A DNA stretch of 64,000 nucleotides, taken from IMG/VR virus record IMGVR_UViG_3300021425_000006. One strand, 5' to 3'. The notes beneath the pieces were generated by a model, which did not search any database, had not been told where the DNA came from, and saw only the letters and a program-made list of their open reading frames with translations. The position numbers and the translations under genes were made by a program. Positions 29,873 through 32,776 of the stretch are shown here, piece by piece (positions within the stretch are counted from its first letter, which is position 1; every line of letters starts with the position of its first letter). The stretch is from a virus.

Positions 29873-31048
29873 ATGTCAGAACTACTAGAAAGTCGCTGGC
29901 AGGAAACCAAAGGCGCACTTCTTGAAGGCTTAAACGGCAACAAGAAAAGCGTGATGGCTGCTACACTTGAGAATACTCGTAAGTATTTGTCAGAGAGTGC
30001 AACAGCTGGTGCAAGTTCCGCCGGTAACGTCGCAACCTTAAATCGTGTGATCCTTCCAGTGATCAGACGTGTAATGCCAACCGTTATTGCTAACGAGTTA
30101 GTTGGTGTTCAACCTATGACTGGACCAGTTGGTCAGATCCACACATTGAGAGTACGTTATGCAGATGCAGTAAACTCAACAAATGGAACAGACACAGCAG
30201 CTGGTGATGAGGCTTTAAGCCCATTCAAGATTGCTGAAGCGTATTCAGGTGCTTTAGATGATAAAGCAGCTGCTACATCAGCGTTAGAAGGCTCAGCTGG
30301 TAACAGACTTAGCATTCAAATCTTGAAGCAAACTGTAGAAGCGAAATCCAGAAAGCTATCAGCTCGCTGGACTTTTGAAGCAGCTCAGGATGCACAATCA
30401 CAGCACGGTATTGATGTTGAAGCAGAAATTATGGCTGCATTAGCACAAGAAATTACTGCTGAGATTGACCAAGAAGTAATTGCTAGCCTTTACAGCCTAG
30501 CAGGATCTGCAGAGTCAGATGTTCAATATGATCAAGCAGGTGTTAGCGGAACAGCTACATTTGTTGGTGATGAACATGCAGCTTTAGCAGTGATGATTAA
30601 CAGAGCAGCTAACAAAATTGCTCAGCGTACACGTCGTGGCGCTGGTAACTTTGCTGTTGTTTCACCACACACTTTAACAGTATTACAAAGTGCTACTACT
30701 TCAGCGTTTGCAAGAACAACTGAAGGTTCTTTTGAAGCACCTACAAATACTAAATTAGTTGGTACATTAAACAATGCAATGAAAGTATATGTTAACACAT
30801 ACGCTTCAGACGCAACTGATGTATTAGTTGGTTATAAAGGTTCAAGTGAATCAGACGCAGCTGCATTCTACTGCCCATACATTCCGTTAATGAGCAGTGG
30901 AGTTGTATTAGACCCAGACACATTCGAACCTGTTGTGAGCTTCATGACACGTTACGGATATGTTGAGTTAAACAACACAGCATCATCTCTTGGTAACGCA
31001 GCTGACTACTTGGCACGTGTAAGCGTAGCTAACGTAAGCTTCAGTTAA
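29873..31048 (+). CDS. gp23: Major capsid protein
   Basis: LPVIRRVMP..IA..LVGVQPMTGPVGQI, VEAKSRKLSARWTFEAAQD, AFYCPYIPL, FMTRYG. Confidence 0.97.
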   Translation: MSELLESRWQETKGALLEGLNGNKKSVMAATLENTRKYLSESATAGASSAGNVATLNRVILPVIRRVMPTVIANELVGVQPMTGPVGQIHTLRVRYADAVNSTNGTDTAAGDEALSPFKIAEAYSGALDDKAAATSALEGSAGNRLSIQILKQTVEAKSRKLSARWTFEAAQDAQSQHGIDVEAEIMAALAQEITAEIDQEVIASLYSLAGSAESDVQYDQAGVSGTATFVGDEHAALAVMINRAANKIAQRTRRGAGNFAVVSPHTLTVLQSATTSAFARTTEGSFEAPTNTKLVGTLNNAMKVYVNTYASDATDVLVGYKGSSESDAAAFYCPYIPLMSSGVVLDPDTFEPVVSFMTRYGYVELNNTASSLGNAADYLARVSVANVSFS

Positions 31049-31071
31049 GTTTTACTAAGCGTAAAAGCATT

Positions 31072-31099
31072 AAAGGGCGGCTTAGGTCGCCCTTTTTTT
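31072..31099 (+). terminator. Rho-independent terminator after gp23
   Basis: AAAGGGCGGC-TTAG-GTCGCCCTTT followed by a T run. Confidence 0.9.
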
Positions 31100-31189
31100 A
31101 TGACCTTTTAATGATTTTACGTATGACTTTTGCTCAATAATGTGTTTAAATAATAGTGTAGTTTTTATTAACTAACTAGGAGAAAGCAT

Positions 31190-31261
31190 ATGTGGACAAA
31201 ACCTTCATATACAGAAATGCGTTTTGGTTTCGAAGTAACAATGTATGTAATGAACAAGTAA
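31190..31261 (+). CDS. pqqA: Pyrroloquinoline quinone precursor peptide PqqA (23 aa)
   Basis: MWTKPSYTEMRFGFEVTMYVMNK*: MWxKP leader and GFEVTMY core with E-x3-Y; SD AGGAG; late motif TAAATA at 31147-52; own terminator. Confidence 0.93.
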   Translation: MWTKPSYTEMRFGFEVTMYVMNK

Positions 31262-31300
31262 AGTACATGCATAGATTGCTAGAAACGCAAGACTGCGAAT

Positions 31301-31320
31301 AACCCGCTTCGGCGGGTTTT
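31301..31320 (+). terminator. Terminator after pqqA
   Basis: AACCCGC-TTCG-GCGGGTT-TT. Confidence 0.85.
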
Positions 31321-31337
31321 CAATGATAAATATTATT

Positions 31338-31404
31338 AGAGTAGTCCACTTTAGAGACTCGCATAGGTTCATGCGTTAAAAGAATCGTAGATATCCAAAA
31401 GGAG
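31338..31404 (+). promoter_or_regulatory. Structured 5' leader with H-type pseudoknot upstream of YRG peptide
   Basis: S1 CGCAT/ATGCG (31360-64/31371-75); loop GGTTC (31366-70) pairs with GAATC (31382-86); starts at the predicted late TSS. Confidence 0.5.
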
Positions 31405-31411
31405 AAATACG

Positions 31412-31474
31412 ATGACTAAAGAACTAACATTTATATATCGCGGTGTCAAGTATACTAAAACCGTAACAGTATAA
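31412..31474 (+). CDS. 20-aa YRG peptide (DUF4278/Downstream-peptide-like)
   Basis: MTKELTFIYRGVKYTKTVTV*, strong SD AAGGAG; YRGVxY motif. Confidence 0.8.
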   Translation: MTKELTFIYRGVKYTKTVTV

Positions 31475-31511
31475 ACCAGTAGACAGGGACGTCTTTTAAA
31501 TAAATAATTAT

Positions 31512-31558
31512 ACGTTCATCCATAAGGACGGAAGTAGACAATAATGTCGAAGGAACGC
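31512..31558 (+). ncRNA. Glutamine riboswitch class I (glnA RNA motif)
   Basis: P1 CGTTC/GAACG, P2 TCC-ATAA-GGA, GGAAGTA...GAAG E-loop, P3 GACA-ATAA-TGTC; begins 5 nt after TAAATA (31501-06). Confidence 0.88.
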
Positions 31559-31584
31559 ATCTTTTAGAAATAGGAGATGTCGAT

Positions 31585-31749
31585 ATGACTAAACTACAAG
31601 CAATGGCATTTAAGCATGCCTTAAAACAAACCCTTAAACATGATAAGCACCCAAGAGTATTAAATTACAATATGCAAAAGCGTCTTGGACTTATTAGTGA
31701 TGCAAGAAAAGAACATAAAAACTTTTTTGTTCCGGATTATTTAAAATAA
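31585..31749 (+). CDS. 54-aa basic peptide downstream of the glutamine riboswitch
   Basis: MTKLQAMAFKHALKQTLKHDKHPRVLNYNMQKRLGLISDARKEHKNFFVPDYLK*; SD AGGAG; followed by a terminator. Confidence 0.8.
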   Translation: MTKLQAMAFKHALKQTLKHDKHPRVLNYNMQKRLGLISDARKEHKNFFVPDYLK

Positions 31750-31763
31750 ATTGCATAGTCATT

Positions 31764-31803
31764 AAAAAGCTCTGCTAGGAAACTGGTAGAGCTTTTTCTT
31801 TTT
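31764..31803 (+). terminator. Rho-independent terminator
   Basis: AAAAAGCTCTGCTAG-GAAA-CTGGTAGAGCTTTTT followed by a T run. Confidence 0.88.
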
Positions 31804-31816
31804 CATAAATACTTGT

Positions 31817-32224
31817 ATGAAGGACGAATACATTCCTATAATGTATGATATCGTACAAGACACTTCACAAACCACTGGAGTACAACTTCCTGTTGACGTA
31901 GAACATTATATTGTTGCTCTATTAGCTTACCATGTTGACAGGCCAGACTTTTTTCCTAAAACTCTTGCAGAGTCTTATCTAACTATTAACAATTATAGAG
32001 ATGCAAAAACATTGGGCGACACTTGCTTATTCGTTGCAGGAATATTCCCTGACTATAAATTAAACTCTAAGTACGTAAGCGATGTAGGCAAGTCAAGTTA
32101 CATACATGTATCAGAAAGTTTACATAATGAATTATTTAAAACATTAGGTATACATTTTGACTATCTTAGTAAATTTTTGAATAGCATACAAGATAAGAAC
32201 TCTTTGAGAACTAACTTCTTTTGA
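31817..32224 (+). CDS. Hypothetical protein (predicted leaderless)
   Basis: 135 aa, KTLGDTCLFVAGIFP motif; TAAATA-N5-ATG. Confidence 0.75.
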   Translation: MKDEYIPIMYDIVQDTSQTTGVQLPVDVEHYIVALLAYHVDRPDFFPKTLAESYLTINNYRDAKTLGDTCLFVAGIFPDYKLNSKYVSDVGKSSYIHVSESLHNELFKTLGIHFDYLSKFLNSIQDKNSLRTNFF

Positions 32225-32235
32225 TAAATACTTGT

Positions 32236-32320
32236 GTCGATAGTGTGCCGCAAGGCGGACTTATGCTGTTTACCCACAGCGTAGCTCATAGAACGGGCAT
32301 TGGACTACTATTATAGGAGA
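32236..32320 (+). promoter_or_regulatory. Structured multi-stem 5' leader
   Basis: GCC-GCAA-GGC, TATGCTGT/ACAGCGTA and GCTC/GGGC stems enclosed by ATAGT/ACTAT; follows late motif TAAATA (32225-30). Confidence 0.5.
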
Positions 32321-32326
32321 AAAAAA

Positions 32327-32776
32327 ATGGGAAGACCACTTAATAAAAGATTGTTTGGAACGCCAACAGCGGCAGGCAACGAAATCAAAGTAAACTTTCA
32401 TAACGGCACAGCAGTTAAAGAAGGTTATATTGTAAGGCAAAAAGCATCAAAGAAATTTGTATGTGAAGAAATTGAAACAGCAGGTGAATTTACTTGTACA
32501 CTAACAACTGGTAAATTACCAGCGGCATTAGCAGCAGGCGAAATGGCTATTTCATTCAAAATGGATGATGAAGAAACTTACACAGTAAGTAAAATTTCTG
32601 GACGTAAAGCTACATTGTCAGCACCAAGTGCAACAGGCTCAAACGCATATGATGGAAAATCAGTACCATGGAACTTTGCAACATCTACTTCAGATGGCGC
32701 AGCACAAGTTGAAGAAGCTGGTGATGATAACACATTAGTCGGTACTGATGACGACGACTTCACAGAAGACGCATAA
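32327..32776 (+). CDS. Virion structural/hypothetical protein (start corrected to 32327)
   Basis: SD AGGAG precedes ATG 32327 (MGRPLNKRLFG), in frame with the 32300 TTG ORF. Confidence 0.8.
   Translation: MGRPLNKRLFGTPTAAGNEIKVNFHNGTAVKEGYIVRQKASKKFVCEEIETAGEFTCTLTTGKLPAALAAGEMAISFKMDDEETYTVSKISGRKATLSAPSATGSNAYDGKSVPWNFATSTSDGAAQVEEAGDDNTLVGTDDDDFTEDA

Follow-up and report, generated by a model that had tools for sequence, protein, structure and literature searches.

A post-capsid island of small cassettes in a Rak2-like jumbo phage, with pqqA, a glutamine-I riboswitch before an orphan peptide, and a conserved pseudoknotted leader before a YRG peptide

Three micro-genes follow the major capsid gene

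We analyzed a 64,000-nucleotide stretch of viral DNA (IMG/VR virus record IMGVR_UViG_3300021425_000006; this whole stretch is called the window below) and focused on positions 31100-31803, directly downstream of the major capsid protein gene. An original prediction, made from the letters of the sequence, had placed three micro-genes here: pqqA, the gene of a short peptide with a YRG motif behind a pseudoknotted leader, and a 54-amino acid (aa) open reading frame (ORF), here called p54, behind a glutamine riboswitch. Comparison with related phages confirmed that the island is real and conserved and that all three micro-genes in it are real. The bearer of the island is an uncultured aquatic Rak2-like jumbo phage, whose capsid protein shares 66-72% aa identity with those of Rak2/PA5oct/GAP32-type jumbo phages, Vibrio phage 2.275.O being the closest. 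This nearest cultured capsid relative, which infects Vibrio, is without such an island and has an ordinary ORF in the post-capsid slot. No tRNAs were found in the 64-kb window. The features of the island, with Shine-Dalgarno sequences abbreviated as SD and nucleotides as nt, are as follows.

29873..31048, + strand: major capsid protein gene (gp23 family; Pfam Gp23, E 4.6e-99), the upstream anchor of the island
31072..31095, + strand: capsid-gene terminator, a 10-bp GC-rich stem and a T-run; good
31105..31326, + strand: pqqA cassette, with late-promoter-like TTTAAATA (31145-31152), SD AGGAG, ORF and terminator
31190..31261, + strand: pqqA ORF, 23 aa, PF08042; SD 7 nt before the ATG
31301..31320, + strand: pqqA terminator, CCCGC-UUCG-GCGGG (stem-loop 31303-31316) and UUUU; the fold of 31259-31326 has -19.4 kcal/mol, z -2.8
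31326..31499, + strand: YRG cassette, a 174-nt indel between two ATAAATA cores
31343..31414, + strand: YRG leader RNA, uncatalogued (98.6 bits with our covariance model R1; no Rfam match even at E<=10)
31412..31474, + strand: YRG micro-ORF, 20 aa, core IYRGVKYT; SD GGAG
31511..31561, + strand: glutamine-I riboswitch aptamer (glnA RNA, RF01739), 57.2 bits against a gathering score of 35, model positions 1-53, full length
31557..31580, + strand: predicted SD-sequestering hairpin formed by the aptamer 3' tail (GCAUCUUUU) and the AGGAGAUGU region
31585..31749, + strand: p54 ORF, 54 aa, basic, member of an orphan family; SD AGGAG
31764..31797, + strand: p54 terminator, a 15-bp stem and a T-run (-21.3 kcal/mol, z -5.1)

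The three tiny ORFs of the original prediction (23, 20 and 54 aa) are present at 31190-31261, 31412-31474 and 31585-31749, and each has the strong SD (AGGAG at 31178-31182, GGAG at 31401-31404 and AGGAG at 31572-31576) and the preceding TAAATA that had been claimed for it. The two terminators described as clear are those after pqqA and after p54, both good; the YRG ORF is followed in the window by a weak hairpin (-2.8 kcal/mol, z -0.1). Both structured leaders were recovered, the glutamine riboswitch through Rfam and the YRG leader through conservation and covariation. The proposed anatomy (PqqA, glutamine-I riboswitch, pseudoknot leader and YRG peptide) is real and conserved in every part, and all three small ORFs are kept in relatives with ratios of nonsynonymous to synonymous polymorphism (pN/pS) well below 1.

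The TAAATA cores of the island lie at 31147, 31327 and 31497/31501 on the + strand. Across the window, 14 of the 43 + strand copies of this motif fall in non-coding DNA, which makes up 9.4% of the sequence (binomial P = 2.4e-5), and the motif is depleted overall (62 copies versus 115 expected). The best local consensus before larger genes is ATAAATAC, found 11-124 nt upstream of the start; the copies before the micro-genes read TTTAAATAAT, GATAAATATT and AATAAATAAT, and the leaders begin 5-11 nt after the core. The cores appear to fit a T4-type late promoter (a TATAAATA-like -10 element), an assignment made from motif position only. A point against it is that the pqqA copy TTTAAATAAT departs from the local consensus ATAAATAC.

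The units are gained, lost and reordered among related phages

In the window the order after the capsid gene is pqqA, YRG unit and riboswitch-p54. Related loci (numbered with an L) depart from this order in several ways. Two of them with capsids 99% identical to that of the window (L004/L005) have a terminator, TAAATA, the riboswitch and p54, without pqqA and without the YRG unit, and a third (L003, capsid 99%) has pqqA and riboswitch-p54 without the YRG unit. In L007 (capsid 89%) riboswitch-p54 comes first and is followed by a pqqA unit with the same ~60-nt upstream sequence. Thus pqqA is present in the window and L003, lies downstream of p54 in L007, and is absent in L004/L005/L006. At nine loci with capsid identities of 86-87% (L009, L011, L028, L038, L045, L050, L053, L056 and L066) the YRG unit alone directly follows the capsid terminator, in the slot that riboswitch-p54 fills elsewhere in the lineage.

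The limits of one cassette can be read from a near-identical viral record of 42.9 kb (G001/L003), which matches 31050-31336 and 31500-31830 at 100% minus the intervening 174 nt, exactly the YRG unit. The edges of this indel are the ATAAATA cores at 31326-31332 and 31500-31506, and the pqqA cassette is flanked by ATGA(C) at 31100-31104 and 31323-31326. The covariance model of the YRG leader (R1) has no match in L003-L007. Because the comparison with related Rak2-like jumbo phages shows gain, loss and reordering, the units are, as judged from aligned loci, independent and mobile cassettes, with riboswitch-p54 as the conserved occupant of the post-capsid slot. The island is not the fixed set that the word toolkit in the original prediction implied: relatives bear one, two or three cassettes in varying order.

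We propose that small accessory cassettes ('morons') would collect in this stretch, immediately 3' of the major capsid gene, making it a hot spot for them. Each cassette would be a complete unit, in which a T4-type late-promoter core (TAAATA) and a leader precede the SD and the micro-ORF; pqqA and p54 in addition have a clear terminator of their own. Cassettes would be gained, lost and reordered via recombination at the repeated promoter cores. T4-type phages reportedly carry promoter-stem-loop (PeSL) mobile regulatory cassettes, and the likeness lies in small accessory genes that are shuffled by recombination between repeated regulatory sequences. The PeSL cassettes combine early promoters with stem-loops in hyperplastic regions, in contrast to the late-promoter cores in the post-capsid slot of the window. 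The exchange of genes of less than 200 nt at repeated late-promoter cores would offer a view of how giant phages trade small genes.

pqqA is shared with cultured phages of methylotrophs

The ORF at 31190-31261 is PqqA. It matches Pfam PF08042 with E 4.5e-12 (46 bits against a cut-off of 21.1 bits; residues 1-19 of 19 profile positions) and has the Glu-X3-Tyr cross-link pair of PqqA as E16-V-T-M-Y20 (EVTMY), which is kept in all phage copies examined. A pN/pS of 0.05-0.46 indicates purifying selection. By blastn, pqqA shows 77-88% nucleotide identity to Venkman, MEP301, MEP401, MEP402 and P19250A and to one spring virome contig. The five named phages are cultured Methylophilales/Methylophilaceae phages, and the match covers coding DNA and part of the upstream region. 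Reading the ORFs directly, we found PqqA identity to the window of 22/23 aa in the OM43 phage Venkman and 18/23 in MEP402; pqqA in P19250A and MEP301 rests on the blastn match only. The pqqA-like stretches lie at L067:1501-1574 (Venkman MT375522.1 9973-10046), L068:590-696 (MEP402), L162:601-673 (P19250A) and L163:601-703 (MEP301).

pqqA is unannotated in the GenBank records of Venkman, MEP402, P19250A and MEP301, MEP401 has no feature under the match, and the pqqA stretch of the spring virome contig lies under a 'hypothetical protein' called on the opposite strand. The expectation that gene callers would miss the whole island is borne out for pqqA, which in these six GenBank phage records is unannotated or has over it only a 'hypothetical protein' call that is adjacent or on the other strand, and fails for p54, a homologue of which was called a hypothetical protein by the JGI. 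Our literature search found no report of pqqA in OM43 phages. Phage PqqA as such is already published: it was described in the Lake Baikal viral population VP_266, whose predicted hosts are methylotrophs (Coutinho et al. 2020, bioRxiv 10.1101/2020.04.02.019802). The addition made here is the near-identical, unannotated pqqA of cultured Methylophilales phages. In both the window and VP_266, pqqA is an auxiliary metabolic gene that stands alone, with no pqqB-E close by; unlike in VP_266, pqqA of the window would be a mobile late cassette in a jumbo myovirus.

PqqB-E use up one PqqA for each pyrroloquinoline quinone (PQQ) made. The phage gene would supply extra precursor peptide to host PqqB-E and so sustain PQQ-dependent dehydrogenases late in infection, and through this route it may affect the host PQQ supply. 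That pqqB-E are not seen in the 64-kb window is a point against such an effect. An under-annotated 23-codon auxiliary gene in cultured phages of marine and freshwater methylotrophs bears on how viral influence over methanol oxidation is estimated.

A glutamine-I riboswitch precedes the orphan peptide p54

By covariance model, 31511-31561 is a bona fide glutamine-I riboswitch, predicted to bind its ligand. The RF01739 aptamer precedes p54 in all five independent versions (window, L004, L006, L007 and L069), and its internal stem changes from GAC/GUC in the window to AAC/GUU in L006/L007, the only compensatory pair seen. An SD-sequestering hairpin is predicted next to the aptamer in both the window and L006; it would have 9-10 bp without ligand and overlaps the P1 3' strand of the aptamer by one base.

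p54 is under constraint (pN/pS 0.11-0.26; 37 invariant columns in six sequences) and rare. An exhaustive profile search of 1.84 billion proteins returned five representatives (three to four convincing, two weak and partial), and a word-index search returned two proteins, with one homologue called by the JGI as noted above. No match to p54 was found in Pfam, PHROGs or cultured phages, the ESM Atlas gave no usable match, and the best hit of a profile search against the PDB was noise at E 1.4. AlphaFold models p54 as three helices with a predicted local distance difference test score (pLDDT) of 67.7 and a predicted template modelling score (pTM) of 0.30, and we ruled out a fold search because this model is too poor. 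By these searches p54 belongs to an orphan family.

We suggest that the aptamer 3' tail would hide the p54 SD in the hairpin and that glutamine binding would free it, in which case p54 would be made when glutamine is high. This ON logic is drawn by analogy with gifB (IF17) of Synechocystis sp. PCC 6803, whose leader contains a glutamine-I riboswitch that switches translation on when it binds glutamine (Klaehn et al. 2018, PMC6212724). The two systems share the RF01739 family, the translational control of a very small basic protein, and an SD masked beside the 3' side of the aptamer. Unlike gifB, p54 is a jumbo-phage gene with a late-promoter core before it, and it is without DUF4278/IF17 similarity. 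Because a glutamine sensor stands in front of it, our guess is that p54 may be a glutamine-induced effector of nitrogen metabolism. The absence of relatives of known family or of a confident fold tells against this guess.

Glutamine riboswitches have been described in the OM43 myophage Melnitz and the Pelagibacter phage Mosig, where the authors propose control of the phage's own genes (PMC9004378), and glutamine-I riboswitches have been reported in SAR86 metagenome-assembled genomes (PMC12379486). The likeness to Melnitz and Mosig is a glnA-type aptamer in a non-cyanobacterial phage; the Melnitz aptamer is linked to a two-piece transfer-messenger RNA, and that of the window to the conserved p54 ORF, which it precedes in the slot after the capsid gene. 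Phages with non-cyanobacterial hosts were thus already known to carry glutamine riboswitches; the new part is the orphan cargo p54.

The YRG peptide and its ties to glutamine-sensing RNAs

The YRGVKY core is invariant in 18 aligned peptides. The pN/pS of the YRG ORF is 0.26, and among 12 ORFs of type B the sole core replacement is K->R in L052, while the codons of the core vary synonymously (CGC/CGT/AGA, GGT/GGC, GTT/GTC/GTA, AAG/AAA and TAT/TAC). The 20-mer has no Pfam match of its own and only a weak PHROG match. Against DUF4278 (PF14105), two out of eight aligned short relatives reach E 0.03, and among longer proteins with the identical IYRGVKYT core, that of L019 passes with 32 bits and the others score 19-23 bits. 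The glutamine-synthetase inactivating factor IF17 has DUF4278 as its N-terminal domain (PMC6212724), and the YRG 20-mer may be a minimal DUF4278/IF17-like motif.

Glutamine riboswitches with ON-switch behaviour are documented before DUF4278 genes (PMC6212724). The tie between YRG/DUF4278 peptides and glutamine-sensing RNAs, stated in the original prediction, is therefore documented, and it was reproduced here: IYRGVKYT micro-ORFs stand behind RF01739 in L012, L016, L019, L021, L025 and L154 and behind RF01704 in L095, L118 and L124. We also observed glutamine-II-like leaders (CGUUCA...GGCUGGAACGCGCAUGGG) before YRG micro-ORFs at L097:~1650-1745 and in L099, L106, L130, L136, L139, L152 and L022. 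These score below the Rfam gathering score and would therefore be riboswitch variants missed by standard scans.

A separate observation concerns 45-aa proteins with two YRG motifs, seen at L093:4712-4846 and ~25 similar loci, in which the first motif reads VYRGAEYD (L093) or VYRGVEYD (L108). YRGAEY is also the sequence of the T-loop in PII (GlnB) from E. coli, at the site where Tyr51 is uridylylated. The YRG proteins gave no P-II Pfam match at E<=10, the two-motif proteins giving DUF4278 only, and we treat mimicry of the PII T-loop by YRG proteins as a lead only.

A conserved H-type pseudoknot leads the YRG peptide

The leader of the YRG micro-ORF has the following parts.

31343-46/31356-59, + strand: helix P0, AGUC/GACU
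31360-64/31371-75, + strand: helix P1, CGCAU/AUGCG
31365-70, + strand: loop, AGGUUC
31376-81, + strand: linker, UUAAAA
31382-86, + strand: pseudoknot 3' strand, GAAUC, which pairs with GGUUC of the loop
31384-89/31408-13, + strand: helix P2, AUCGUA/UACGAU, its 3' strand reaching into the start codon at 31412 (A and U)
31401-04 and 31394-96, + strand: SD GGAG, inside the P2 loop, and the anti-SD UCC that it faces

The core of the leader, CGCAU-AGGUUC-AUGCG-UUAAAA-GAAUC, is a near-invariant, 33-nt H-type pseudoknot, and the helices around it vary while keeping their pairing. P0 shows more than 11 pair-type combinations, with 4/4 pairs complementary in 23 out of 24 sequences and double (compensatory) changes at all four pairs. 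P2 also stays paired with other letters in L034, L134 and L018, and its variants include AUUGAA/UUCGAU, ACUUA/UAAGU and CGUG/CACG. For the pseudoknot itself, GGUUC pairs with GAAUC, GAGUC or GAAUU, and we find GAUUC/GAAUC, GAUC/GAUC and GGUC/GACU as further variants. In two lineages both knot strands are shortened, to GAUC/GAUC (L008 type) and GGUC/GACU (L134), with an A-U to G-C swap between them. For the structure as a whole, 96% of cells are paired versus 10-41% with the partners slid, and 0/500 shuffles reach the covariation score. The minimum-free-energy fold of the leader hides both SD and AUG (-17.2 kcal/mol, z -2.3). An alternative upstream hairpin from the single-sequence fold, UAGAGU/ACUUUA, is possible in several sequences and was rejected as less consistent than AGUC/GACU.

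Leader and peptide occur together. A back-translated IYRGVKYT pattern found 28 viral loci, to which a broader YRGVKY scan added variants, and the YRG leader accompanies YRG micro-ORFs in ~60 viral contigs. Searching viral contigs with the leader core pattern, we found a YRG ORF of 15-27 aa located 26-71 nt downstream of all 39 matches (39/39); conversely, 34/34 matches of a metagenome scan keyed on the peptide bear the YRG leader, where the contig extends far enough upstream. R1 has one match in the window and scores the divergent L008 type at 27-29 bits. A second weak R1 match (15.8 bits) lies at L008:5427-5511, directly after the L008-type YRG ORF; it has a hairpin, a CAAAAG linker and possible loop pairing, and no YRG ORF follows it.

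Outside viral contigs, a search of 185,579 species genomes for the exact core, in which knot pairing was not systematically checked, gave three matches, none with a YRG ORF and all judged to be chance. Among cultured phages (blastn E<=1) no YRG leader was found, only the YRG coding part being matched, in Synechococcus phage S-CBP3. Rfam returned no RF01704 or RF01739 match in 31333-31411 even at E<=10, these models had no match in ten other loci bearing the YRG leader, and a permissive Rfam scan of 31040-31830 gave no preQ1-I or other small-pseudoknot riboswitch family. Our literature search found no report naming a third glutamine riboswitch class. By the comparative evidence, the leader adds a new structural variant to the known units made up of a structured leader and a YRG peptide, and it is a good riboswitch candidate. 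It is the newly recognized element of the island, pqqA and riboswitches of this kind being already known in phages. Its structure and its association with the peptide are shown by the comparison, and its ligand and the direction of control are what we infer below.

Metabolite sensing and alternative roles of the YRG leader

The YRG peptide would be translated from a leader with a variable P0, a near-invariant knot core and a P2 that masks SD and AUG. In the main type the knot 3' strand and the P2 5' strand share three bases, and therefore knot formation should release the start codon; a stabilized pseudoknot would open it, in a riboswitch-like ON logic. Our best guess is that the leader would respond to glutamine or to another metabolite that reports nitrogen status, because the same peptide is found behind glutamine-I/-II riboswitches elsewhere and longer proteins with the same core pass or approach DUF4278, and because the YRG unit and the riboswitch-p54 unit are interchangeable in one slot within the lineage. 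That the leader is a metabolite-sensing riboswitch we consider possible, if somewhat short of probable. More tentative is the full proposal of a third, structurally distinct riboswitch class for YRG/DUF4278, in which a 33-nt H-type aptamer, phage-only so far, senses glutamine or a nitrogen-status metabolite and opens the start-codon helix. If the leader does bind a metabolite, it would be a new and very small riboswitch class that is mainly or only viral. The same tiny peptide would then be gated by RNA in a third, independently evolved way, which would argue that YRG peptides matter for phage handling of host nitrogen status.

Known systems offer partial parallels. Glutamine-II (Downstream-peptide, RF01704) is found before DUF4278 'YRG' peptides of marine picocyanobacteria and cyanophages (PMC6698751, PMC6212724), and the likeness extends to the downstream peptide family and to a pseudoknotted leader near the SD. 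In contrast to the CGUUC/GGAACG ligand-binding helix and CGC linking strand of glutamine-II, the YRG leader has GGUUC/GAAUC and UUAAAA and fails the RF01704 model. Its strand order also differs: it is a classical H-type knot, in which L1 is a single nucleotide, L2 is absent and L3 is A-rich. With preQ1-I, SAM-II/V and guanidine-III the leader shares a ~33-nt core, a 5-bp stem, a loop paired with the 3' strand, an A-rich linker, and a knot 3' strand that abuts the SD/AUG region. Unlike in these classes, the conserved letters are its own, and their Rfam models do not match.

Several observations argue against metabolite sensing and the switch proposed for it. Two base pairs contact glutamine in the solved glutamine-I/-II structures, and these are not kept in the YRG leader (GGUUC/GAAUC versus CGUUC/GAACG; PMC6698751). 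Because these two pairs are altered and the topology differs, a simple 'glutamine-III' is disfavoured. P1 and most of the knot show little covariation because they are nearly invariant; within the model alignment the knot shows only wobble-compatible one-sided changes (G-U->A-U, A-U->G-U and C-G->U-G), and the two four-base knot variants (L008 type and L134) were aligned by eye. In L134, L034 and the L008 type there is hardly any overlap between the knot strand and the P2 strand, so that mutual exclusion of knot and P2 is not universal.

The main rival is an operator or constitutive structure, that is, a conserved, structured 5' untranslated region without small-molecule sensing. It might serve as an operator bound by a protein or by the YRG peptide, comparable to T4 gene 32 or regA-type translational repression, or else as an RNA thermometer or a stabilizing or standby element. 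Phage mRNAs do use pseudoknotted operators (the T4 gene 32 leader), so there is precedent for such a role, and the variants in which knot and P2 need not compete also favour it, as does the absence of the glutamine-contacting pairs of known aptamers (PMC6698751). However, the module moves in one piece between unrelated phage backbones whose promoter types differ, so that the factor would have to be either universal or self-encoded. A core of 33 nt that is near-invariant, with freely covarying flanking helices, is moreover the usual picture of a small aptamer (preQ1-I), and the same peptide is under proven metabolite sensors elsewhere. On this balance we regard the operator or constitutive role as rather unlikely. 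It is improbable that the leader is a very divergent member of glutamine-II missed by the Rfam model, even though the letters GUUCAU and CGCAU, the pseudoknot and the downstream gene family are in common and other YRG leaders (L097, L106, L130 and L139) are glutamine-II-like yet below the Rfam threshold. Neither RF01704 nor RF01739 matches 31333-31411 at E<=10, the GGUUC strand lies inside the P1 loop and not 5' of P1, an A-rich linker replaces the CGC strand of the solved structure, and the two ligand-contacting pairs are changed (PMC6698751).

The remaining alternatives concern the coding capacity of the small frames. With a weak hairpin after the YRG ORF and the riboswitch-p54 unit directly next in the window, the YRG frame might be a regulatory leader peptide (upstream ORF) that controls read-through into the next unit. 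In most relatives, however, a good terminator and then unrelated genes follow the YRG ORF, the aa core is invariant or nearly so while codons vary, and the motif is common to longer DUF4278 proteins; we judge such a role quite improbable. Least credible of all is that the spacer is non-coding and the small ORFs arose in it by chance, as might be thought from their very short length and from the many small frames in AT-rich spacers. The comparative data contradict it: the PqqA match is highly significant (E 4.5e-12), pN/pS is well below 1 for all three ORFs, SD spacing is correct, and dozens of independent homologous loci are known.

We return to the preferred explanation, a moron hot spot whose cassettes bear pqqA, riboswitch-p54 and a riboswitch-like YRG leader in the roles given above. 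We hold it, with moderate confidence, to be the best explanation overall. The original prediction had spoken of a metabolite-gated toolkit. This is borne out in part: of the three, p54 alone stands behind a recognized metabolite sensor, pqqA is without a sensor, and the YRG leader is not a recognized glutamine aptamer. That the cassettes would act late to tune host carbon and nitrogen metabolism is a reasonable conjecture.

Further occupants of the post-capsid region

The post-capsid slot gathers structured RNAs as well as micro-genes, with manA RNA and freshwater-2 RNA found in relatives. We detected manA RNA (RF01745, 75-85 bits) in the same island at L006:3226-3431, L007:3371-3576 and L103:12456-12661. 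In the window, freshwater-2 RNA (RF02980, 69.7 bits) occupies 32244-32329. A ATAAATAC late-promoter-like core (32224-32231) precedes it, and a conserved gene of 149 aa follows, with its ATG at 32327. Freshwater-2 RNA also precedes the homologue of this gene in L004, L007, L009 and L103. Since it precedes a homologous gene in related jumbo-phage loci, this orphan motif appears to be a phage late-gene 5' leader.

The capsid terminator differs in its letters between the window and L004/L005 despite capsid proteins that are 99% identical. Its stem reads GGGCGGC...GTCGCCC in the window (31072-31095) versus GGGAGGA...TCCTCCC at L004:2885-2908, and both are self-complementary. Further downstream, a 135-aa ORF without a Pfam or PHROG match lies at 31817-32224 of the window behind a ATAAATAC core. 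It is found only in the closest relatives, L003-L005, and is therefore another variable occupant of the island.

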